A stretch of DNA of 64,000 nucleotides from an uncultured Chloroflexia bacterium (lineage in GTDB: Bacteria > Chloroflexota > Limnocylindria > Limnocylindrales > CSP1-4). The position numbers and the translations under genes are program-made. The stretch is from the NCBI GenBank assembly GCA_963831745.1, contig CAWHRD010000004.1, positions 46,005 through 110,004 of the forward strand. The letters are read 5' to 3'. This document shows, in pieces, positions 1 to 58,571 of this stretch; the first letter of the stretch is position 1; each line of letters starts with the position of its first letter. A model generated the notes under the pieces. It saw nothing but the letters and a program-made list of their open reading frames with translations, made no database searches and was not told the origin of the DNA.

Positions 1-1188
1 GTGGGCCTCGACTCCGGGATCCTGATGCACCCCCAGATCTGGGTCACGTCGGGCCACGTCGCCGAGTTCAACGACCCGATGGTCGAGTGCGCCACCTGCA
101 AGCGGCGCTACCGCGTCGACGAGTTCGCCGGGACCGAGGACCTCGGCCCGAAGGAGCTGCTCGATCCCGGGATCGTGGGCCGCCTCGGGCTGGCCTGCCC
201 GAACGACGGCGGGCCGCTGAGCGCGCCGCGCCGCTTCAACCTGATGCTCAAGACGTTCCTCGGCCCCGTCGAGGACGAGGCGGCCGTCGTCTACCTGCGC
301 CCCGAAACCGCCCAGGGGATCTACGTCAACTACCGCAACGTGCGCGACACGGCCCGCAAGAAGATCCCCTTCGGGATCGCCCAGGTCGGCAAGGCGTTCC
401 GCAACGAGATCAGCCCCGGCAACTTCGTCTTCCGGATGCGCGAGTTCGAGCAGATGGAGATGCAGTACTTCGTCCACCCCGAGACGGCGTCCACCCACTT
501 CGAGGACTGGCTGCCGCGGCGCAGGGCGTGGTACGAGGCGTACGGCGTGGCACCCGAGCGGCTCCGCTTCCGCGAGCACCGCGCCGACGAGCTGGCCCAC
601 TACGCCAAGAAGGCCATCGACGTCGAGTACCGCTTCCCGTTCGGCTGGAAGGAGCTCGAGGGGATCCACAACCGCGGCGACTGGGACCTGGGCCGCCACG
701 CGAAGGAATCCGGGGAGAACCTGGAGTACTTCGACCCGGCGACCGAGGAGCACTACATCCCCTGGATCATCGAGACCTCGGCGGGCGCCGACCGGGCCGC
801 CTTCACCTTCCTCATCGACGCCTACCGGGAGGAGGAGGTCCGCGGCGAGAAGCGGGTCGTCCTGGGGCTCCATCCCGATCTCTCGCCGTACAAGGTCGCG
901 GTCCTGCCGCTGCTCAAGAAGCGCGGCGAGATCGTCGAGATGTGCCACCGCATCAAGGACGACCTCAAGCGCCACGCGATGGCGGTCTACGACGACACCG
1001 CCGCGATCGGCAAGCTCTACCGGCGCCAGGACGAGATCGGCACGCCGTGGTGCGTCACCGTGGACGTGGACTCGCTGGACGACGGCAACGTCACGGTCCG
1101 CGACCGCGACGCGATGACCCAGGAGCGCATCGGCGCCGGCCAGGTGACGCGCTACATCCTCGACAAGCTCGAGGCGGCGCGGCCCTGA
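1..1188 (+). CDS. glyQS: Glycine--tRNA ligase (class II, dimeric type), C-terminal about 395 aa; 5' end truncated by the window edge
   Basis: Open frame from base 1 to the stop at 1188. The translation carries class II aaRS core motifs (FRNEISPGNFVFRMREFEQMEMQYF) and an anticodon-binding C-terminus typical of GlyRS. Confidence 0.85.
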   Translation: MGLDSGILMHPQIWVTSGHVAEFNDPMVECATCKRRYRVDEFAGTEDLGPKELLDPGIVGRLGLACPNDGGPLSAPRRFNLMLKTFLGPVEDEAAVVYLRPETAQGIYVNYRNVRDTARKKIPFGIAQVGKAFRNEISPGNFVFRMREFEQMEMQYFVHPETASTHFEDWLPRRRAWYEAYGVAPERLRFREHRADELAHYAKKAIDVEYRFPFGWKELEGIHNRGDWDLGRHAKESGENLEYFDPATEEHYIPWIIETSAGADRAAFTFLIDAYREEEVRGEKRVVLGLHPDLSPYKVAVLPLLKKRGEIVEMCHRIKDDLKRHAMAVYDDTAAIGKLYRRQDEIGTPWCVTVDVDSLDDGNVTVRDRDAMTQERIGAGQVTRYILDKLEAARP

Positions 1189-1195
1189 CGGTCGA

Positions 1196-1711
1196 ATGGA
1201 TCCGCACGGCGCCGGGCGCCTCGAGACGCGGCGGCTCGTGCTCCGCCCATTCCTGCCCGACGACGTGGGAGTGATGGCCGAGGTCCTCGGCGATCCGGTC
1301 TCGATGCGCTTCTACCCGCATCCCTTCTCGTTCGAGGAGACCGAGGCCTGGGTGGCCCGGAACATGGCCCGATCCGAAGGGGATGGCCTCGGACTGTGGG
1401 CCGTCGTGCTTCGCGACACCGGCGAGGTCGTGGGTGACTGCGGGGCGGTGGTCCAGCAGGTCGACGGGTCGGACGAGCTGGAGCTCGGATGGCACCTCCA
1501 CCCCGCCCACCAGGGTCACGGCTTCGCGACGGAGGCGGCCATCGCCTGGCGCGACTACGCGTTCGCCGTCACCGGTCGCGACCGGCTCATCTCGCTGATC
1601 CTCGAGGAGAACCTGCCCTCCCAGCGCGTCGCCGAGCGGATCGGCATGTCGGTCTGGAAGACGGCCGCGTTCGCCGGTCGCTCGCACCTCGTGTACGCGA
1701 TCCGCCGCTGA
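1196..1711 (+). CDS. GNAT family N-acetyltransferase (RimJ/RimL-like)
   Basis: 171 aa with the acetyl-CoA binding motif region (HLHPAHQGHGFATEAA) and the characteristic 'RLVLRPF...D' N-terminus of RimJ-like GNATs. It starts 8 nt after the glyQS stop. Confidence 0.75.
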   Translation: MDPHGAGRLETRRLVLRPFLPDDVGVMAEVLGDPVSMRFYPHPFSFEETEAWVARNMARSEGDGLGLWAVVLRDTGEVVGDCGAVVQQVDGSDELELGWHLHPAHQGHGFATEAAIAWRDYAFAVTGRDRLISLILEENLPSQRVAERIGMSVWKTAAFAGRSHLVYAIRR

Positions 1712-1811
1712 GCGTCGCCGGCGCCGCGGCTCTCGGGAACCTTCCGGCCTTCCCCGACGACATACCATCGAAGGCGCGACGACATCGCCGCGTCGACACC
1801 GGGGGGAAGCC

Positions 1812-2375
1812 GTGGACCAGCGAGAGCTCGTCGAGCGCGCGCGGGAGGGCGATCATGACGCCTTCGCCGTGCTCGCCCGCCTGTTCGTCGCGCGGCTGGA
1901 CGCGGCAGCCCGACTCATTCTCCGGGACCCCGAGCTCGCGCGAGACGCGGTCCAGGAGGGCTTCATCGGCGCATGGCGGAACCTCCCGACGCTCCGGGAT
2001 CCGGATCGCTTCGAAGCGTGGCTCCGCCGGCTCGTCTTCCGCTCCTGCATCGACGCCGTCCGGCGTCGCGGCCGCCGGCCTATCGAGGTCGAGCTGTCGC
2101 CCATCGACGCGCCGGCGATTGGCGACATCGCCTCGCTCGTAGCCGATCGCGAGATGCTCGACGCCGCCCTCCGGCGGCTCCGACCCGAGTGGCGCGCGGT
2201 CGTCGTCCTGCACTACTACCTCGGAATGCCGTTGCCCGACGTGGCGGCGACCCTCGGCATCCCGATCGGGACCGCCAAGTCCCGGCACCACCGCTCCCTC
2301 GAGGAGATGCGCTTCTCGATCTCCGCCGCTCTCGAACCCCCGCGTTCGCCCGCCACGGGAGGGCAGGTCGCATGA
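1812..2375 (+). CDS. ECF (sigma-70 family) RNA polymerase sigma factor
   Basis: 187 aa with sigma region 2 (DAVQEGFIGAWRNLPTL, FEAWLRRLVFRSCIDAVRRR) and region 4 (LPDVAATLGIPIGTAKSRHHRSLEEMR). GTG start at 1812. Confidence 0.8.
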   Translation: MDQRELVERAREGDHDAFAVLARLFVARLDAAARLILRDPELARDAVQEGFIGAWRNLPTLRDPDRFEAWLRRLVFRSCIDAVRRRGRRPIEVELSPIDAPAIGDIASLVADREMLDAALRRLRPEWRAVVVLHYYLGMPLPDVAATLGIPIGTAKSRHHRSLEEMRFSISAALEPPRSPATGGQVA

Positions 2376-3610
2376 CCGATCTCGAGCGCCTCGAACCGCG
2401 GCTGCCCGAGCTGCTGGCCGACCTGGCGACCCCGCGGGTTCCCGACTACTTCGACGACATGCTCCTGGCGACCGCCCGAACTCGGCAGCGGCCCGCCTGG
2501 AGCTCCCTCGAAAGGTGGCTTCCCATGGACGTCGCGCGTCCCGCACCATTCCGGGCGCCCTCCCTGCGCCCGCTCCTGATCATCGGGATCCTGGGCATCC
2601 TCGTCATCGCGTCCGCGCTGGCCTTCGCAGGCTCCCAGCCCCGACTGCCGGCTCCGTTCGGTCCCGCCCGCAACGGCGCGATCCTGTTCAGCACCACCGA
2701 GGGCGACATCCTGGCGGCCGACCCGGCGACCGGGACGACAACGGCGGTCGTGACCGGCCCCGCCCGCGACGTAGATCCGTGGGTGTCGCCGGACGGCCGC
2801 CGGTTCCTGTTCCACCGGGTGTCGGGCCAGGGAACCGCGCTCCTGGTGGCGAACATCGACGGCACGGGCGTCCGGGAGGTCCTGCCCGCGGGAACGCTCG
2901 GCCGTGGGGTCGAGTGGTCGCCGAGCGGCGACCGGCTCGTCCTGAGCGGGTTCGAGAACACGGATCCCGCGCAGCTCATCGATGTCGCCAGTGGGTCGTC
3001 GACGACCATCGACGCCGGCTTCCCCATCGCGTACGCAGTCTGGCGGCCCGGCCACGAGGACCTCGTGCTCACCGGCGACAAGGACGGCCGGCGCGGGTTC
3101 TGGCTCGTGAACCCCGACGGCACCGGTCTCCGGCAGATCCCGACGAACCCTGGTGCGATCAACGACGCGTCGGTGTCGCCCGATGGCTCCACCCTTGCCT
3201 ACGCGACGTGGGAGGACGGCCCCGGACTCCAGGGGCGCATCCACGTCGATGACATCGATTCCGGTCGTGATCGGCTGCTCACGCCCGACCTCAGCGACGG
3301 GTACACACGGCTCAGCCCGCAGTTCTCGCCCGACGGCAGGACGCTGCTCGAGGAGCGGTACGACGCAAAGGGGCAGTACTCGATGGCGATCCTGTCCGTC
3401 GACGGGGGCGTGCCGGAGATCGTCCTGGGGGCGCCGCACCCGGAGCGAACCAACGGCGCGGCCGCGCACTTCTCGCCCGACGGAACCAAGATCCTCCTGA
3501 CGTACCGCGACGACGGGTCGACGTGGCTGCTGGCGAGGGACGGCACCACCCAGGAGCGGGTGGCGTGGCCGGCGACCGAGATGGAGTCCTGGCAGCGCCT
3601 GGCGCCCTGA
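2372..3610 (+). CDS. Membrane-anchored TolB-like / WD40-like beta-propeller repeat protein; candidate anti-sigma partner of the upstream ECF sigma factor
   Basis: Its ATG at 2372 overlaps the sigma stop (ATGA), implying translational coupling. A single TM helix (LLIIGILGILVIASALAFAG) is followed by repeated 'SPDG' beta-propeller blades (WVSPDGRRFLF, WSPSGDRLVL, SVSPDGSTLAY, QFSPDGRTLL, HFSPDGTKILL). Confidence 0.7.
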   Translation: MTDLERLEPRLPELLADLATPRVPDYFDDMLLATARTRQRPAWSSLERWLPMDVARPAPFRAPSLRPLLIIGILGILVIASALAFAGSQPRLPAPFGPARNGAILFSTTEGDILAADPATGTTTAVVTGPARDVDPWVSPDGRRFLFHRVSGQGTALLVANIDGTGVREVLPAGTLGRGVEWSPSGDRLVLSGFENTDPAQLIDVASGSSTTIDAGFPIAYAVWRPGHEDLVLTGDKDGRRGFWLVNPDGTGLRQIPTNPGAINDASVSPDGSTLAYATWEDGPGLQGRIHVDDIDSGRDRLLTPDLSDGYTRLSPQFSPDGRTLLEERYDAKGQYSMAILSVDGGVPEIVLGAPHPERTNGAAAHFSPDGTKILLTYRDDGSTWLLARDGTTQERVAWPATEMESWQRLAP

Positions 3611-3627
3611 CCCGTCGGTGCCACGTA

Positions 3628-3658
3628 CGCCGGGTCACGCCGCGGGCGTGGCCCGGCG
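3628..3658 (+). terminator. GC-rich hairpin (13-bp stem with one G-U wobble, 5-nt loop) followed by TT; candidate intrinsic terminator of the sigma/propeller operon
   Basis: cgccgggtcacgc-cgcgg-gcgtggcccggcg, 18 nt after the stop at 3610. Confidence 0.4.
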
Positions 3659-3949
3659 TTGCCGTGCCCGGCGCAGCAACGAGCCGTCGGCCTCCCCGAC
3701 GGGTCGTCGCGCGGGCTACTCCGCGGCGGCGGCCGCCGGCTCGCTGCACCCGAGCAGGGCCACGGCCTCGGCCGTCGTGAGGATCCCGGCCAGCCAGCGG
3801 CCAACGACCTCGGTCCGCTGCTGCTCTCTCGTCGTCAACGTCAGGCTCTCCCTCATGAGGTGAGACTGACAAATTCACTGAGCAGTTGTCCCTGCCAGAT
3901 TCACTGAGCAGGGACAGTTCTCGCGCTCTTTTCGTCCGCTCTGGTAGCC

Positions 3950-4339
3950 TTGGCGGTCTTCTCCTACGGCGCGCTGAGTCCGCTGCCTGCGTCCGCAGCG
4001 TGCTCGGGCGCATACCTCACGATCTACGAGAACACTGGCGGCGGTGGGGCCGCCTACACGTTCTGTGCCGACTCCAACGACCCTGACTTCTCGGACAGCA
4101 CTCCCCCTAGCCCGGGAACCGGTCACTGCGGCGTGTTCGGGACCACTTGGAACGACTGCGCGAGCTCGGCCTACTGGCATCCAGCGACCGGCAAGTACGT
4201 ATGCCTGCATTCCAACTCGAGCTACGGCGGAAATGCGCTGCAGTGGGCGCCGTCCTCGTATGCTGGACGTATCGACCTGCCCACGTGGATGAACAACGTC
4301 GCGAGTTCCCTCGACTGGGGTAGCGGCTGCCTCCAGTAG
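3950..4339 (+). CDS. Hypothetical small secreted Cys-rich protein (6 Cys; Tyr/Trp/Asn/Ser/Thr-rich) in a lower-GC islet; start codon uncertain
   Basis: Composition is unlike the Arg/Pro artefact ORFs and local GC is about 60% versus about 72% in the flanks. The in-frame upstream extension (VLALFSSALVALAVFSYGAL) looks like a signal peptide but has no canonical start after the in-frame TGA at 3905; TTG 3950 and CTG 3941 are the only candidates. Confidence 0.5.
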   Translation: MAVFSYGALSPLPASAACSGAYLTIYENTGGGGAAYTFCADSNDPDFSDSTPPSPGTGHCGVFGTTWNDCASSAYWHPATGKYVCLHSNSSYGGNALQWAPSSYAGRIDLPTWMNNVASSLDWGSGCLQ

Positions 4340-4632
4340 CGGATCGTTCAGGGTGCCGCGTGGCGGCCCCAGATCAGTTCGAGGAGTGCCTTGTTTGCCT
4401 GCGCCCCTGGGCCGATGCGCAAGGCTGTAGACGACGCGGGCTGTCGGCCCGCCCCTCCGGGGGCCTGTAGCTTCGGGTCGTCTCCCACCCCCGGCCTGCC
4501 TCCGCCGCATCACTCCCTCAAGCGCAGGCACCAGCGAGGCGGGCACGTTCGATCAGATCTTGAGGCGCCTGCTGTCGGTCTTAGCCGAACCAGCGAGATC
4601 GCAATCGGCGGGGCCGTTCGGGCGGTCCTGAA

Positions 4633-4935
4633 TTGAACCTCAGGCGGCTCATGCTGGTGCTCGTGGCCGCCGCCATGGCCGCAGACCTCGTCACCTTCGT
4701 CCTGCTTTCAAACGAGGCTGGCGGCATCTACAACGAGATCAACCCCGTAGTGGTCGCGGCCCACGGTGCGTTCGGCCTCATTGGCATCGCCATCCTCAAG
4801 GTTGGCCTTGCCATGGTGCTGGTGCTGCTCGTGTCCCGCATCCGCCGCCCCGTGATGCTCATGGTCGCTGCGAGTGTCGCGATCTTCTTTGGACTTCTCG
4901 GCGCCGTCGGGAACATCACGGCGTGGCTGCGCTGA
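4633..4935 (+). CDS. Hypothetical small integral membrane protein (about 3 TM helices)
   Basis: 100 aa, strongly hydrophobic (LMLVLVAAAMAADLVTFVLL; GLIGIAILKVGLAMVLVLLV; MLMVAASVAIFFGLLGAVG). It lies in the lower-GC islet; start is TTG 4633 or ATG 4651. Confidence 0.4.
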   Translation: MNLRRLMLVLVAAAMAADLVTFVLLSNEAGGIYNEINPVVVAAHGAFGLIGIAILKVGLAMVLVLLVSRIRRPVMLMVAASVAIFFGLLGAVGNITAWLR

Positions 4936-5053
4936 CACCCAGGAAGGGCGTAGGCCAGCGAGGTGCGTGAACGCGGCGCGACAAGCCGAAGGAGGCGGCG
5001 TGGCCCCGGATCTCCCCACGGCGCGTCAGCATTGACACAGCACCGACCAGACG

Positions 5054-6598
5054 CTACCTCTTCTCCGCGGCGGCGGCCGCCGGCTCGCCCGAGACGACCT
5101 CGCCCGTCGGCGGGTACTCGCCGCGGAGGAAGGCATCCATCGCGTGGGCGGCGCGCTTGCCGTCGCCCATGGCCAGGATGACCGTCGCCGCGCCGCGGAC
5201 GATGTCGCCGCCGGCGAAGACGCCCGGGATGGAGGTCATCCCGAAGTCGTCGGTGACGACGTAGCCCCAGGGGTTGATCTCGAGGTCCGGCTCCGACGCG
5301 GTCAGGAGCGGGTTGGCCTTCGTGCCGATCGCCACGACCACCATCTCGCAGTCGATGACGAACTCGGAGCCATCGATCGGGACCGGCCGCCGGCGGCCGG
5401 AGGCGTCGGGCTCGCCGAGCTCCATCCGGAGGCAGCGGATCCCGGTCACCCAGCGGTTCTCGTCGGCGAGGACCTCGATCGGGGCCACCTGCAGCTCGAA
5501 CCGGATCCCCTCCTGCTCGGCGTGGTGGACCTCCTCCGCGCGGGCGGGGAGCTCGGCCTTGCCGCGGCGGTAGACGATCGTCGCCTCGTCGGCGCCCAGG
5601 CGCTTGGCCGTGCGCACCGAGTCCATCGCGACGTTGCCGCCGCCCACGACGACGACGCGGTGGCCGCGCAGGACCGGCGTGTCGGACGCGGGGTTCCACG
5701 CGCCCATCAGGTTGACCCGGGTGAGGTACTCGTTGGCCGAGTAGACGCCCTTGAAGTTCTCGCCGGGCACGTTCATGAACACCGGCAGCCCCGCGCCGAC
5801 CGCGAGGTAGACGGCGTCGAAGCGGTCGCGCAGCTCCCGCAGGGTGTAGGTACGGCCGATGATGGCGTTCGTCTCGATCTTGACGCCCGCGGCCACCAGC
5901 CGGTCGACCTCCTGCTGCACGATGTCCTTGGGGAGCCGGAACTCCGGGATCCCGTAGATCAGGACGCCGCCCGGCGAGTGGAAGGCCTCGAAGATCGTGA
6001 CGTCGTAGCCGTTGCCGACGAGCTCCTTGGCGGCGGTCAGGCCGGCCGGCCCGGAGCCGACGATGGCGACCGATCGCCCGACCGACGTCGGGTGGGCCGC
6101 GGCCAGCGCCTCGGGGTGCACCATCGCCCAGTCGGCGACATAGCGCTCGAGGGCGCCGATCGCGACCGGCGAGCCCTTCTTGGCCCGGACGCAGACGCCC
6201 TCGCACTGGATCTCCTGCGGGCAGACCCGCCCGGTGACGCACGGCAGGGCGTTGTCGCCGAGCAGGGACTCCGCGGCGCCGGCCATGTCGCCGACGCGCA
6301 GCAGCTCGATGAAGCGCGGGATGTTGACGCGGACCGGGCAACCGGCGATGCAGACCGGGTTCTTGCACTGGAGGCAGCGCTCGGCCTCGAGGACGGCGAG
6401 CTGCTGGGAGTAGCCGAGGTTGACCTCGCGGAAGTTGGCCGCGCGCTGGAGGGCATCCTGTTCGGGCATGTGGGTCCGCTCGATCGCCATCCGCTCCTTG
6501 GGCGTGAGCGGTCGGTCGAAGGCGGGCTGGAATGCCGAGTCGCCGGGGGACGCTGCCCCGGCTCCCTGGTCGGGAGCGGGGTTCGGCTGGTCGGTCAC
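5054..6598 (-). CDS. NADPH-dependent glutamate-synthase-beta-like oxidoreductase, large subunit of an NfnAB / SudAB-type ferredoxin:NADP oxidoreductase (NfnB/SudA/GltD family)
   Basis: 514 aa. N-terminal 2x[4Fe-4S] cysteine clusters (CLQCKNPVCIAGCP, CPQEIQCEGVC), followed by FAD (VAIVGSGPAGLTAA) and NAD(P) (VVVVGGGNVAMD) Rossmann motifs. ATGA overlap with the upstream small subunit. Confidence 0.85.
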   Translation of the reverse strand: MTDQPNPAPDQGAGAASPGDSAFQPAFDRPLTPKERMAIERTHMPEQDALQRAANFREVNLGYSQQLAVLEAERCLQCKNPVCIAGCPVRVNIPRFIELLRVGDMAGAAESLLGDNALPCVTGRVCPQEIQCEGVCVRAKKGSPVAIGALERYVADWAMVHPEALAAAHPTSVGRSVAIVGSGPAGLTAAKELVGNGYDVTIFEAFHSPGGVLIYGIPEFRLPKDIVQQEVDRLVAAGVKIETNAIIGRTYTLRELRDRFDAVYLAVGAGLPVFMNVPGENFKGVYSANEYLTRVNLMGAWNPASDTPVLRGHRVVVVGGGNVAMDSVRTAKRLGADEATIVYRRGKAELPARAEEVHHAEQEGIRFELQVAPIEVLADENRWVTGIRCLRMELGEPDASGRRRPVPIDGSEFVIDCEMVVVAIGTKANPLLTASEPDLEINPWGYVVTDDFGMTSIPGVFAGGDIVRGAATVILAMGDGKRAAHAMDAFLRGEYPPTGEVVSGEPAAAAAEKR

Positions 6599-54941: not shown

Positions 54942-56375
54942 ATGAGGGTCAGTCGCGTCCAGTCGAGCCGCGTCACGGTGGTGATCGCGGTGCTCGCCCT
55001 GGTGGCCGGCGCGTGCGGGGGCGGAGCGACCGCGTCGCCCGCAACGACGGCGGCGCCAAGTCAGGCCGCATCTGGGGCGCCTGCGTCCCAGGCGCCTGCC
55101 AGCGAATCGCCGGCGGCAGGCACGCCGGTGAACGTCTGCGAGCTCGCCTACGTCACGGGCGAGTTCGCGCCGTACGGGCCGGCGCTCAGCGCGGACGTGG
55201 TCTTCCCGGTCAAGAAGGTCATCAACCTCGATCCGCCGTTGGGCCGCCCGTGGGTGAACGTCAAGGAGGACCTCGGGACGGTCGGCGAGGCCCAGGCTGC
55301 CAAGGCCTGCCTCGAGAATGACGGTGCCGAGATCGTGGTGAGCATCGCCCACGGGTACCGGAACTATCGCGACTACATGATGCAGTACTGGGAGGAGAAC
55401 GACTCGCCGCTCGGCCCGTCGATCCACGGCGGCCTCATCCCGGGCAACCTCGGAGGCAAGGCCGCAGAGCCGATCTTCCGGGCGCAGGGCCTCGACGAGG
55501 GCCTGGGCGTCTACGCCGCCGAGTACGCGGACACGATCGGCGCCAAGAAGGTCGTGATCTTCGCCACCCAGGTGGCGGGCTTCCAGCTCGCAGCCAACGC
55601 GGCCGAGAAGGCCGCCAAGCTCTTCAACATGGAAGTCCTTGCCCGCATCAACGAGCCGGCCGAACAGACCTCCTATGCGGCCGACGCCCAGAAGATCGCG
55701 GGCCTCAAACCGGATGCGGTCATCGTGCAGGCGGGCTCGGTGGAGTCGGCCATCCTGATCAAGCAGGCGGCCGAGGCCGGCCTCGTGACCGCCTGGATCG
55801 GCGAGACCGGCTGGAGCCAGGCGGAGTTCATGAACCGCCTCGACGCCAAGACGATCGGCTCGCAGAAGGGCGTGGGCTACGCGGCCTTCTCGGCCAACAC
55901 GACGACCCCCGCGTGGACGTTCTTCCAGCCCTTGCGGGACGCCTGGGTCGCCGAGTCCGGGGTCGCCGCCAAGGACTACTACGGGGCGGACAACCCGTAT
56001 GCCTTCTCGGCATACGACGTCCTGGTCATGACTGCCCTCGCCGTGGAGTACGGAAAGTCGTACAAGGCGAGTGCGTGGGCACCGGCCATGCACACGATCG
56101 GCGACCCGCCGGGCGACAAGTGCTACACCTACGCCGACTGCCTGGCGCTGATCCGGGCCGGCAAGGACATCGACTACGAAGGCGTCACCGGCCCCGGCAC
56201 CTACACCGACGGTGGCGTCAACGCCGTCACCCCCACGTACACCGGGTTCGGCACGGACAAGAAGGCCGTGGCGCCCGTGCTTCTCGATCCCCAGAAGGCC
56301 CTCGAGATGCTCGACCAGGTCAAGACCGTCGCCGAGTGCGACAAGCCGGATCCGCCCAATACCTGCACGTGGTAG
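54942..56375 (+). CDS. ABC transporter substrate-binding lipoprotein (Leu/Ile/Val-binding-protein-like, type I PBP); unusually long (477 aa) and encoded last in the operon
   Basis: Lipobox LALVAGACGG, a Pro/Ala/Ser linker, then a type-I periplasmic binding fold. Confidence 0.8.
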   Translation: MRVSRVQSSRVTVVIAVLALVAGACGGGATASPATTAAPSQAASGAPASQAPASESPAAGTPVNVCELAYVTGEFAPYGPALSADVVFPVKKVINLDPPLGRPWVNVKEDLGTVGEAQAAKACLENDGAEIVVSIAHGYRNYRDYMMQYWEENDSPLGPSIHGGLIPGNLGGKAAEPIFRAQGLDEGLGVYAAEYADTIGAKKVVIFATQVAGFQLAANAAEKAAKLFNMEVLARINEPAEQTSYAADAQKIAGLKPDAVIVQAGSVESAILIKQAAEAGLVTAWIGETGWSQAEFMNRLDAKTIGSQKGVGYAAFSANTTTPAWTFFQPLRDAWVAESGVAAKDYYGADNPYAFSAYDVLVMTALAVEYGKSYKASAWAPAMHTIGDPPGDKCYTYADCLALIRAGKDIDYEGVTGPGTYTDGGVNAVTPTYTGFGTDKKAVAPVLLDPQKALEMLDQVKTVAECDKPDPPNTCTW

Positions 56376-56406
56376 CCGTCGAGAACCCCACGCTCTGACG
56401 GAGATC

Positions 56407-56445
56407 GAAGGGGGCTCTCCCGCCAACCGGCGGAGGGCCCCCTTC
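56407..56445 (+). terminator. Long imperfect GC hairpin about 30 nt after the binding-protein stop; candidate terminator of the ABC operon
   Basis: gaagggggctctcccgcc-aacc-ggcggagggcccccttc. Confidence 0.45.
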
Positions 56446-56553
56446 CTGCGCAGGGCGGCAGCCCGTCGCGCAACGTGCGGGGCGGCGGACGCCGCCCTCG
56501 ATCGAGGGCAACCTCCGAGCACCGAGGCCCGCGGCGGGCCCGAAGGAGGCGCC

Positions 56554-57231
56554 GTGACAGCGCAGCCCGAGCTCATCTCGCGCAGCGTCCTGGCGGACCA
56601 GGTGAAGGACCGCCTGCTGCAGGACATCCTCGCCGGGCGCTATCCCCCCGAGGCCCGGATCGTCGAGACGAGCCTGGCGCGCGAGCTGGGCGTCAGCCAG
56701 GCCCCGGTCCGCGAGGCGCTGCGCGGCCTCGAGGCCCTGGGGCTCGTCGAGATCCTCCCGTTCCGCGGCGCCCGGATCCGGCGCCCGTCGATCGGGGAGC
56801 TGCTCGAGGCGTACACCGTCCGCTTCGAGCTCGAGGCGCTGGGCGCCCGCCTCGGCGTGCCCCGCATGACGGACGCGGACCTCGCCGACCTCGAGGCGCT
56901 CGGCGACGAGATGCAGCGCGCCGCCGCGGCCGGCGACCGCCACCAGGTCGCCGTCGCCGACGCGATGTTCCACGCCCGGCTCCTCCACCTCGCCGGCAAC
57001 GCGACCCTCGAGCGCGTCTGGCGCTCGCTCGAGCCGTTCAGCCGGACCTACATCACCCTCGTCGCGCCCGGCGCCGACGCCCACTGGACGGCCGACCTCC
57101 ATCCCCGGATCCTCGCCGCCCTCCGCACCCGCGACGCCGAGCAGGTCGTCGCCGCCCTCCGCGAGCACTTCGACGAGGTGGCGGCGCACCTGGCGGACAC
57201 GTGGCATGGCGCACGACATGGGCCCGGCTGA
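56554..57231 (+). CDS. GntR family transcriptional regulator (FadR/FCD subfamily), copy 1
   Basis: wHTH (SLARELGVSQAPVREALRGLEALGLV) plus an FCD C-terminal domain. The GTG start is preceded by GAAGGAGG. Confidence 0.8.
   Translation: MTAQPELISRSVLADQVKDRLLQDILAGRYPPEARIVETSLARELGVSQAPVREALRGLEALGLVEILPFRGARIRRPSIGELLEAYTVRFELEALGARLGVPRMTDADLADLEALGDEMQRAAAAGDRHQVAVADAMFHARLLHLAGNATLERVWRSLEPFSRTYITLVAPGADAHWTADLHPRILAALRTRDAEQVVAALREHFDEVAAHLADTWHGARHGPG
56565..57205 (+). repeat. 641-bp exact direct repeat, copy 1 (covers most of GntR copy 1)
   Basis: Identical at DNA level to 57872..58512. Confidence 0.8.
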
Positions 57232-57790
57232 CCCACCCGCGGCCGTGCCTCGGGACCGGCGTGGGGCGGTCTCGCCGGAGTCCGCGGCGGTCCGGTTGGC
57301 CCGCGACTGCTACCTCGACGACCGGCACGTGTACGGCTGCGCGGAGACGGTGCTCGTCGCCCTCAAGGCCGCGTACGGCCTCGACGACCCGCTGGACTCC
57401 TCGGCGGCAATCGCCCTCAACGGCGGTCTCGCCTGGAGCGGGGGGCCGTGCGGCGCGCTCACTGGGGCGGCGATCGCGGTCGGCATGCTCGCCGAGCGGC
57501 GGCTCGGCGAGCATGCACGGGCGAAGCTCGTCGCGCGCGAGGTGATCGCGGCGCTTCTCGATGCGTTCGTCGTGGAGCACGGCGCCGTCGACTGCCGGGA
57601 CCTGGTCGGCGTCGACCTGCGGGCGCCGGGCGGGCACCAGGCGTTCATCGAGAGCGGTGCCTGGCGGGACGGCTGCCTGCGGCAGATCGAGTTCGTGGTG
57701 GGGCGGCTGGCAGCCCTGGCGGATCTCGCCGAGTGGGACAGGACGGTTCGCACGATCGAGGCGCCGCCCGGCGGCCGACTCGGCGCGTAG
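57206..57790 (+). CDS. C_GCAxxG_C_C family putative redox-active protein
   Basis: YGCAETVLVAL...GGPCGALTGAAIAVG, with downstream Cys residues (VDCRDL, DGCLRQI). Confidence 0.65.
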   Translation: MAHDMGPADPPAAVPRDRRGAVSPESAAVRLARDCYLDDRHVYGCAETVLVALKAAYGLDDPLDSSAAIALNGGLAWSGGPCGALTGAAIAVGMLAERRLGEHARAKLVAREVIAALLDAFVVEHGAVDCRDLVGVDLRAPGGHQAFIESGAWRDGCLRQIEFVVGRLAALADLAEWDRTVRTIEAPPGGRLGA

Positions 57791-57863
57791 ACTGCGGGAG
57801 TGGCGCGACCGGGCGGGGGCGGATCGCCCGGTGACCCGGGCGCCGCCGCGTCGAGGAGGATCG

Positions 57864-58571
57864 ATGACCGGGCCCGAGCTCATCTCGCGCAGCGTCCTGG
57901 CGGACCAGGTGAAGGACCGCCTGCTGCAGGACATCCTCGCCGGGCGCTATCCCCCCGAGGCCCGGATCGTCGAGACGAGCCTGGCGCGCGAGCTGGGCGT
58001 CAGCCAGGCCCCGGTCCGCGAGGCGCTGCGCGGCCTCGAGGCCCTGGGGCTCGTCGAGATCCTCCCGTTCCGCGGCGCCCGGATCCGGCGCCCGTCGATC
58101 GGGGAGCTGCTCGAGGCGTACACCGTCCGCTTCGAGCTCGAGGCGCTGGGCGCCCGCCTCGGCGTGCCCCGCATGACGGACGCGGACCTCGCCGACCTCG
58201 AGGCGCTCGGCGACGAGATGCAGCGCGCCGCCGCGGCCGGCGACCGCCACCAGGTCGCCGTCGCCGACGCGATGTTCCACGCCCGGCTCCTCCACCTCGC
58301 CGGCAACGCGACCCTCGAGCGCGTCTGGCGCTCGCTCGAGCCGTTCAGCCGGACCTACATCACCCTCGTCGCGCCCGGCGCCGACGCCCACTGGACGGCC
58401 GACCTCCATCCCCGGATCCTCGCCGCCCTCCGCACCCGCGACGCCGAGCAGGTCGTCGCCGCCCTCCGCGAGCACTTCGACGAGGTGGCGGCGCACCTGG
58501 CGGACACGTGGGCGGCAAGCCTGCCCGGCGCCACGCTCGCGATCCCGGTCGGCGAGCCGGCCCCGGGCTGA
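57864..58571 (+). CDS. GntR family transcriptional regulator (FadR/FCD subfamily), copy 2 (differs from copy 1 only at the extreme N- and C-termini)
   Basis: RBS GAGGAGGA before the ATG. The 641 internal nt are identical to copy 1. Confidence 0.8.
   Translation: MTGPELISRSVLADQVKDRLLQDILAGRYPPEARIVETSLARELGVSQAPVREALRGLEALGLVEILPFRGARIRRPSIGELLEAYTVRFELEALGARLGVPRMTDADLADLEALGDEMQRAAAAGDRHQVAVADAMFHARLLHLAGNATLERVWRSLEPFSRTYITLVAPGADAHWTADLHPRILAALRTRDAEQVVAALREHFDEVAAHLADTWAASLPGATLAIPVGEPAPG
57872..58512 (+). repeat. 641-bp exact direct repeat, copy 2
   Basis: Identical at DNA level to 56565..57205. Confidence 0.8.

Follow-up and report, generated by a model that had tools for sequence, protein, structure and literature searches.

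Genes and Features of the Locus

The DNA analyzed here, called the window throughout, is a 64,000-nucleotide stretch of contig CAWHRD010000004.1 from an uncultured Chloroflexia bacterium. Our subject is a small islet in it, situated between a gltD-like glutamate synthase small-subunit gene and a class-II aminoacyl-tRNA synthetase (aaRS) gene, that carries a Cys-rich open reading frame (ORF) with no canonical start codon, a piece of an insertion sequence (IS), and a gene for a small membrane protein. An earlier note, made from the letters alone, had described the ORF as a probably horizontally acquired secreted protein preceded by a direct-repeat hairpin. The overall GC content of the window is 73.1% (standard deviation of 1.1-kb windows, 2.9%), and the closest relatives of its gltD lie in metagenome-assembled genomes labelled Chloroflexia or Candidatus Limnocylindrales, at no more than 95% amino acid identity. 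The features of the islet and its borders, as we assign them, are as follows.

3716–3744, minus strand: displaced ancestral gltD 3′ end, comprising the stop TAG (3716–3718) and the distal copy of a 26-nt repeat (3719–3744); the gltD ending of relatives matches it.
3740–3744, minus strand: 5-nt microhomology GCGAG between the IS interior and the gltD-end copy; the alignment with locus L086 and the full IS copies stops here, and the direct repeat starts.
3745–3856, minus strand: first 39 codons, the helix-turn-helix (HTH) region, of an IS1202-family (ISNCY) transposase, with its ATG at 3856 and its last codons entering the microhomology.
3857–3916, minus strand: IS 5′ untranslated region and left terminal inverted repeat, with the terminus TGT at 3916–3914, two copies of ATTCACTGAGCAG, a hairpin at 3888–3915, and the TGA at 3905–3907.
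3917–3933, plus strand: expected copy of a 17-bp target duplication, GTTCTCGCGCTCTTTTC.
3917–4339, plus strand: 5′-truncated βγ-crystallin/Inhibitor_I36-like gene, without Met and charged n-region, the rest intact to the stop TAG at 4337–4339.
3942–3950, plus strand: TGGTAGCCT, an extended −10-like motif that lies 26 nt beyond the IS end and is a putative determinant of IS targeting.
4340–4632: 293-bp spacer in which no gene, RNA family, or homologue was detected.
4633–4935, plus strand: DUF5658-like small membrane protein of 100 residues with a TTG start (Pfam DUF5658, PF18902, 18.5 bits).
4936–5062: end of the islet, a 118-bp spacer (4936–5053) and 9 nt (5054–5062) that supply the last two codons and the stop of gltD.
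5063–5088, minus strand: proximal copy of the 26-nt repeat inside the gltD 3′ end (26/26 identity).

A Predicted βγ-Crystallin/Inhibitor_I36-Type Secreted Protein

The ORF at 3950–4339 is present as the earlier note had it, with a TTG start, 129 residues, and 6 Cys. That it represents a real gene is borne out by 29 homologues, which belong to a family of secreted, Cys-rich proteins and were recovered by an exhaustive HMMER search of 1.8 billion clusters. The best of these is 45% identical (E = 4e-24), the others are ∼30–36% identical, and most are 135–159 residues in length. A word-indexed protein search with the ORF returned its own protein as the sole match. The contig of the closest homologue (L085, 1 kb) shows no conserved neighborhood. 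Against Pfam Inhibitor_I36 (PF03995), the window protein scores 20.7 bits, just under the cut-off of 21.1; at E ≤ 0.01, the model recognizes 16 of 25 family members, the best at 3.6e-7. An NCBIfam scan gave no match for the three islet proteins.

Structural comparison leads to the same family. With an AF2 model of the protein as the query (mean pLDDT 84.4), Foldseek matched the PDB entries 1hdf, 3enu, 3so1, 1nps, and 3hz2 at a probability of 1.0; the matched proteins are spherulin 3a, nitrollin, clostrillin, protein S, and archaeal crystallin. Target-normalized TM values are 0.71–0.78 for the single-domain matches except nitrollin, and 0.61 for 3enu. A profile of the family run against PDB sequences recovers the same βγ-crystallins (E = 4e-7); it did not recover SMPI, the Streptomyces type member of Inhibitor_I36. 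Microbial βγ-crystallins carry a Ca2+-binding signature, N/D-N/D-x-x-S/T-S, and the translation contains NDCASS and NNVASS, while WNDC.SS is nearly invariant in the alignment of the homologues (A1). Taken together, the model and the profiles assign to the protein a double Greek-key domain of the βγ-crystallin/Inhibitor_I36 type. The bacteriocin or toxin domain that had been raised as a possible hit was not found; Pfam, Foldseek, and the PDB profile all return the βγ-crystallin/Inhibitor_I36-type fold.

The window model shares with microbial βγ-crystallins a single double-Greek-key domain, two N/D-N/D-x-x-S-S motifs, and a YE-N/D...G motif, and the homologues share the small secreted format of Inhibitor_I36 proteins and βγ-crystallins. 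It differs from βγ-crystallins in its six-Cys pattern (C32, C53, C74, C84, C99, C141) and in a long Pro/Ser-rich loop between the motifs of the first two strands, and its identity to the solved βγ-crystallin structures is at most 20%. The homologues define a sparse, previously unnamed branch of six-Cys βγ-crystallin/I36-like secreted proteins, from which the window copy departs in having neither a start codon nor an n-region.

It is at this N-terminus that the gene is abnormal. All 24 homologues aligned in A1 begin with M/L-x-R/K and a hydrophobic core of 15–20 residues; an A-x-A site comes next, ahead of the first conserved Cys. With these homologues, the window ORF aligns from the core VLALFSSALVALAVF onward, which leaves ∼3–5 N-terminal residues missing. 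The segment VLALFSSALVALAVFSY was correctly picked out in the earlier note as a signal-peptide core, since it aligns with the signal peptides of the 24 homologues. A complete Sec signal peptide is nevertheless absent; the core and the ASA-A site are kept, but the Met and the n-region are replaced by IS DNA. The upstream frame is open to the in-frame TGA at 3905–3907, as had been pointed out, and there is no ATG, GTG, or TTG between this TGA and TTG 3950, so the possible starts are CTG 3941 and TTG 3950. The latter sits within the signal-peptide core, and the maximum Kyte-Doolittle value of its product is 1.5, compared with 2.0–2.6 for the native core.

The Repeat Hairpin Is Assigned to an Insertion-Sequence End

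The DNA directly upstream of the ORF contains ATTCACTGAGCAG exactly twice in the window (3873–3885 and 3899–3911), in agreement with the earlier note. The hairpin that was described with these repeats is real and holds the TGA in its 12-nt loop, although its stem is 8 bp (GTCCCTGC at 3888–3895 with GCAGGGAC at 3908–3915) and not the 9 bp quoted. Folding of 3850–3960 is modestly more favorable than that of shuffled sequences (z = −1.97), with 7 of 200 shuffles as stable.

The identity of this segment comes from the opposite strand, where 3716–3856 encodes a 46-residue HTH ORF that is absent from the earlier note. Its HTH fragment is 85% identical to the 48-residue protein P0036 of contig L086, its one close relative. 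We found 11 metagenome loci, 8 of which match all 48 residues of P0036 at 83–94% identity (the transposase N-termini of L087–L094, compared with P0036 as the reference). The two ORFs that were read, in L087 and L090, encode a 435-residue transposase, and that of L087 scores 360.5 bits against NCBIfam NF033594, "ISNCY family transposase" (cut-off 250). A tblastn search of plasmids with the transposase returned only relatives of <40% identity. Full copies of the IS in metagenomes are ∼1.4 kb, open with TGTCCCTGCTCAGTGAATCTGnCAGGGnnAACTGCTCAGTGAnTTTGTCAGTCTCAC, and close with the related inverted sequence CTGACAGAGTCACTGAGCGTCAACA. The reverse complement of 3740–3916 aligns with L086 and with the full copies L087–L094 starting exactly from TGTCCCTGCTCAGTGAAT, and the flanks beyond differ. 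In nine other copies, the IS homology likewise begins exactly at TGTCCCTGCTCAGTGAAT, with unrelated genes downstream. The left end, TGTCCCTGCTCAGTGAAT...CTGCTCAGTGA...TGTCAG, is present in the window and in these nine copies; full-copy right ends read TGTTGACGCTCAGTGAC, and the right-end motif in reverse complement is TGTTGACGCTC.

From these alignments, we assign 3857–3916 as the left end of an IS1202-family (ISNCY), ISTde1-subgroup-like element, and we place the beginning of the native sequence of the ORF at 3917. What had been taken for a direct-repeat hairpin in the leader of the gene corresponds to the terminal inverted repeat of the IS, which contains two copies of a repeat of the transposase-binding type and is found in every IS copy, and not to a regulatory leader. 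The in-frame TGA 3905 and a GTG at 3860 lie in IS DNA and are coincidental.

Members of the ISTde1 subgroup have TGT ends, an internal second binding-site repeat, and 15–17-bp duplications; ISTde1/ISCARN-type members are ∼1.33–1.40 kb, and the subgroup has been found in Chloroflexi among others (bioRxiv 10.1101/2022.12.17.520857; PMC10132070). The relatives of the window IS share with this subgroup (e.g., ISCARN53/62/63 and ISTde1) a length of ∼1.4 kb, a 435-residue HTH+DDE transposase, 5′-TGT termini, the internal copy of the end repeat, and 17-bp duplications. Such duplications flank L087 and L093; three other full copies are without them. The window copy differs from the subgroup in that it keeps only ∼172 nt, i.e., the left end and 39 codons, with no right end and no second duplication. 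It is not a complete mobile element, as only IS positions 1 to ∼177 (∼172 nt without the microhomology) are present, and neither an IS right end nor a second copy of the GTTCTCGCGCTCTTTTC 17-mer occurs elsewhere in the 64 kb. The copies compared here also differ from the ISTde1 subgroup as published by a target motif at a fixed distance, which is described below.

Another solo left end of the IS, ∼205 nt in length and truncated independently, is found at 450–657 of contig L086; in it, 48 codons are followed by a stop. It lies upstream of a gene that, read by eye, is HNH-endonuclease-like. Since this end was truncated independently, 5′ relics of this IS recur.

Islet Boundaries and the gltD 3′ End

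The islet is bracketed by a perfect 26-nt direct repeat at 3719–3744 and 5063–5088 (26/26; 0 expected by chance), which is also absent from the earlier note. In the closest relatives, gltD terminates in ...GCGGAG-TAG, and the distal repeat copy, read as the reverse complement of 3716–3744, does the same. The present gltD ends in GCGGAG-AAG-AGG-TAG, with two additional codons (Lys-Arg) and a stop that come from the inserted DNA at 5054–5062. Because the gltD end of relatives equals the distal repeat copy, the ancestral gltD stop and the DNA downstream of it now lie at 3716 and leftwards. We therefore delimit the islet as a 1318-bp patch (3745–5062) that sits at the stop codon of gltD between the two copies of a 26-nt duplication. 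We compared 80 related loci at the gltD/aaRS position. The patch is absent at the locus of relatives, which upholds the insertion that the earlier note had expected from synteny, and both the Cys-rich I36-like ORF and the HTH/IS ORF occur in 0 of the 80 loci. The 118-bp spacer at 4936–5053 has no homologues in relatives.

At the left border, IS homology breaks off at transposase codon 39, where GCAGC-GAG runs into CCGGCGGCC, the gltD 3′ end. We classify the junction at 3740–3744, from its sequence, as illegitimate and of the microhomology type, and not as a product of transposition. The two window copies of the gltD tail are 26/26 identical even though this tail is hypervariable among lineages, which points to an event in situ or to exchange between sister strains. 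Sliding identity of the flanks against relatives revealed no recombination breakpoint in gltD or in the aaRS gene.

How the Gene May Have Lost Its Start

We consider it most probable (roughly 0.8) that insertion of the IS at about codon 5 beheaded a gene for a secreted protein, that the IS was then itself truncated and joined to the gltD end, and that the remainder is a recent pseudogene. The ORF would be without a start because its Met, n-region, ribosome-binding site, and promoter lay across the IS, on the side that has since been lost. The earlier suggestion of a recent lesion stands in this account, but a point mutation of the start codon or non-canonical initiation does not, as the IS end at 3916 cuts the gene at about codon 5. 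As to the order of events, we infer that the IS inserted first and that the microhomology recombination came later. In the sequence that we propose, the crystallin-like gene and the DUF5658-like gene would have pre-existed at another location, or in the region between gltD and the aaRS gene as a sister strain has it, and the IS would have entered the 5′ end of the crystallin-like gene. A fragment reaching from the IS interior to just past the membrane-protein gene would then have been joined into the last gltD codon by a microhomology-mediated event that duplicated 26 nt. To the lost half we would assign the promoter of the gene with its ribosome-binding site, ATG, and n-region, as well as the second GTTCTCGCGCTCTTTTC and the remaining IS.

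Candidate routes for the joining step are end-joining at a staggered break, template switching during replication, and homology-facilitated illegitimate recombination (HFIR; PMC3240628), for which gltD or the aaRS gene could serve as the anchor. The locus shares with HFIR foreign or relocated DNA joined at a 5-nt microhomology beside a conserved potential anchor gene, in a region that varies among strains. It differs in that a 26-nt duplication was left here, whereas the usual outcome of HFIR is a deletion, and the identical gltD-tail copies fit an in situ event at least as well.

Several points weigh against this account. Past the break, the ORF is fully intact, with 141 codons and no frameshift relative to the homologues, which implies either that the truncation is recent or that there is residual expression from TTG 3950 or by read-out from the IS. 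The databases contain no intact orthologue of >50% identity, and the missing 5′ end is thus reconstructed from distant homologues. Finally, the 26-nt duplication has several candidate mechanisms, with a staggered break or template switching in situ on the one hand and HFIR with a sister strain on the other.

The intact reading frame is also what makes it worth considering that the gene still functions from TTG 3950, or from CTG 3941, perhaps through IS read-out transcription, with a product that is either exported or independent of export. The remaining leader would be MAVFSYGALSPLPASAA, a putative export signal; the ORF is intact up to the conserved C-terminal Cys, TTG is a legal start in bacteria, and the public annotation calls the 129-residue P0001 from it. 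We regard this as unlikely. The TTG 3950 product keeps ∼8 residues of the core and has no charged n-region, unlike 24 of 24 homologues; the cytoplasm is an unlikely place for a disulfide-rich βγ-crystallin domain to fold; and the promoter scan gave no promoter-like site. Translation from GTG 3860 through TGA 3905 by UGA recoding (selenocysteine or read-through), with the hairpin as the signal, is scarcely credible. The GTG is in frame with the ORF, a Shine-Dalgarno-like GAGGTG overlaps it, and the TGA lies in the hairpin loop, but 3857–3916 is IS DNA, which precedes unrelated genes at nine further loci, so the frame is accidental, and the homologues have no residues that match 3860–3907. In bacteria, the selenocysteine insertion sequence (SECIS) element is located 3′ of the UGA, whereas the hairpin here encloses it, and there is no Rfam match.

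Two further alternatives concern the borders of the patch. The 26-nt repeats might be the target duplication or the att core of an element carrying the whole 1.3-kb islet, either IS1202-type or an integrase island. Perfect 26-nt repeats at the 3′ end of a conserved gene would suit such an element, and 27–28-bp duplications are known for some IS1202-family members (bioRxiv 10.1101/2022.12.17.520857; PMC10132070). We hold this to be very improbable, and the repeat was rejected as a 27–28-bp target duplication, since this IS makes duplications of 17 bp and the repeat meets the middle of the transposase through microhomology and not an IS end, with no right IS end to pair with it. There are also no terminal inverted repeats at 3745/5062, and six-frame segments and Pfam/NCBIfam scans of the patch contained no integrase or recombinase. 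Marginally less probable still is a chimeric assembly, in which the junctions would stem from the merging of two strains that occur together and differ in their cassette at this position. The assembly is of the metagenome type, the locus is hypervariable, and both cassette types occur in related genomes; however, the junction between the gltD end and the IS shares 5 nt, far less than any assembler overlap, typical final k-mers are longer than the 26-nt repeat, and the contig is 192 kb. The independently truncated L086 copy, moreover, demonstrates that solo ends of this IS are real.

With IS insertion and subsequent truncation as the preferred account, the gene is most likely a recent pseudogene and not an expressed secreted protein, while a bacteriocin or toxin, recoding, and a function of the leader hairpin are unsupported. 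Two simpler repairs of the frame were also tried and rejected. A 1-nt homopolymer frameshift (TTTT, 3929–3932) that would link TTG 3886 to the ORF fails because everything upstream of 3917 is IS DNA, and inspection of the sequence shows that no frame is regained by removing the 26 nt that separate the two 13-mers. Within 3500–5300, Rfam at the curated threshold returned nothing, and promoter and terminator scans gave no promoter-like and no relevant terminator-like site.

As an instance of ordinary genome decay, in which routine IS-mediated truncation was combined with illegitimate recombination in a variable region, the finding itself matters little. It does bear on annotation. The public gene calls comprise a 46-residue protein, P0035 (3716–3856), and the 129-residue P0001 from TTG 3950; on this analysis, P0035 would be a fusion of the IS fragment with a gltD tail, and P0001 the product of a 5′-truncated pseudogene. 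The annotation should mark 3950–4339 as a 5′-truncated pseudogene and 3716–3856 as an IS fragment.

A Putative Target Motif of the IS

The flanks of the IS copies suggested one point of potentially wider interest. In 10 of 10 independent left flanks (the window, L086–L089, L091–L094, and L096), a motif [T/G/C]GnTAnCnT begins 26–27 nt outside the IS left end and reads away from it, within the stretch 26–35 nt out. The flank consensus, TGsTAkCCT, is extended −10-like, and the background frequency is 1.1e-4 per position. In L092 and L093, the motif stands directly before a tRNA gene, the tRNA 5′ ends being cut by the contig edge, and in L087 a tRNA-Glu is predicted ∼37 nt beyond it. In L086, L088, and L091, an ATG follows the motif by 7–11 nt, an arrangement of the leaderless type. 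Overall, a tRNA-like 5′ sequence or an ATG comes within ∼5–13 nt of the motif in 5 loci. In the window, the motif is TGGTAGCCT, and it falls within signal-peptide codons.

At about even odds, we propose that the IS is a promoter-targeting member of the IS1202 family that inserts in a single orientation, ∼6 bp upstream of the −35 region. Targeting could operate by reading of the DNA motif or by recognition of promoter-bound RNA polymerase, by analogy with the ISAba32 subgroup at XerC/D sites. The crystallin-like gene might then have been struck because its signal-peptide codons happen to spell TGGTAGCCT. In a published survey, the ISAba32 subgroup is the only one for which targeting of a site is reported (bioRxiv 10.1101/2022.12.17.520857; PMC10132070). 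With ten flanks, the motif is a lead and not a demonstration, and it is the only potentially new point of this analysis. If confirmed, it would represent a new targeting mode for the IS1202 family. The element itself serves as a clean example, from Chloroflexota, of an ISTde1-subgroup IS whose extended −10-like target motif is apparently strict and oriented.

The Membrane-Protein Gene and the GC Content of the Islet

The small membrane protein that the earlier note placed after the ORF is there, with three hydrophobic stretches, the middle one of which is long enough for two helices. It shares with DUF5658 a length of ∼100 residues, three or four hydrophobic helices, and weak but consistent Pfam matches. 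All of these fall under the gathering cut-off of 25.2 bits, with 18.5 bits for the window protein and 19.8–24.8 for four homologues. The homologues are 51–81% identical. At the same locus, beside the aaRS gene, the membrane-protein gene is found in L081 and L082 (both at 75% nucleotide identity) and in L084 (82%), and we conclude from this distribution that the gene is not foreign to the clade.

The GC drop over 3830–4960 is real, and this is the lowest-GC 1.1-kb stretch in the 64 kb, but the "roughly 60%" given for it earlier overstated the effect, as the measured value is 64.9%. GC at third codon positions (GC3) is 0.79 in the crystallin-like ORF, 0.85 in the DUF5658-like gene, 0.905 in the PD40 gene on the other side of the islet, and 0.975 in gltD, with a median of ∼0.91 for the long ORFs of the window. 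At first and second positions, the islet genes have GC1 of 0.53 and GC2 of 0.39–0.61, which are low because the encoded proteins are rich in Tyr/Asn/Ser/Thr or hydrophobic residues. The DUF5658-like genes of relatives have a similar GC content (0.65–0.70), and the nearest homologue of the crystallin-like gene is on a contig of 64% GC. The dip thus appears to be partly compositional, and it mildly suggests a foreign origin for the crystallin-like gene. Of the horizontal acquisition that the earlier note proposed, what stands is the insertion of the segment, as judged by comparison with relatives; the low GC can be read only in part as a mark of foreign DNA, and the membrane-protein gene is apparently native to the clade.

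The Interval between the aaRS Gene and gltD

The neighboring genes and the intergenic DNA to the left of the patch are as follows.

1–1188: class-II aaRS gene, convergent to gltD.
1148–3610: GNAT gene, ECF sigma factor gene, and PD40 β-propeller gene, the other cargo of the interval in the window.
3611–3715: intergenic DNA from the PD40 stop (3610) to the ancestral gltD stop, holding a hairpin at 3627–3659.
5054–6598, minus strand: gltD-like glutamate synthase small-subunit gene (Pfam Fer4_20 and Pyr_redox_2).

In most of the closest relatives (e.g., L009, L003, and L010), the gap between gltD and the aaRS gene is ∼60–90 bp, many relatives having one of ∼55 bp, and in other relatives the two genes are separated by 0.3–1.7 kb of unrelated DNA. 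In the window, the interval is 3.9 kb (1189–5062) and contains the GNAT, ECF sigma, and PD40 genes and the islet. A similar PD40 gene is convergent to gltD in L012 and L039, and L081 has a cassette of a DUF5658 gene and an HTH_31 gene at this position. We interpret the interval, on comparison of these loci, as a strain-variable hotspot.

The hairpin at 3627–3659, between the PD40 stop and the displaced gltD stop, is near-perfect, with 15-nt arms that are 93% complementary and a 3-nt loop. It is probably a bidirectional terminator of originally convergent genes, and it yielded a spurious, sub-threshold Rfam match to a microRNA. The C-terminal tail of gltD (window 5054–5100; L001–L082) is a hypervariable, low-complexity sequence rich in Ala, Pro, and Glu, whose length and sequence vary even in genomes that are ∼90% identical elsewhere. 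Directly 3′ of gltD in L081 (7290–7440) and L082 (7289–7473), there are 3–4 tandem copies of a 49-nt unit, ATACGATCGCCGGGGGCGATATCCCGGCGCGGGCTCGGCCGAGAGCTCG, whose core is palindromic, and the two assemblies do not have the same number of copies.

Elsewhere in the window, an HTH similarity at 57–58 kb was traced to a duplicated GntR-type regulator and has no relation to the IS. The regulator ORF occurs twice (56212–57231 and 57561–58571), identical over most of its length (∼225 residues by eye), with a 194-residue ORF between the copies (57206–57790). It lies in a tandem duplication at 56565–58500 that has a period of 1307 bp and is 100% identical over at least 300 nt.

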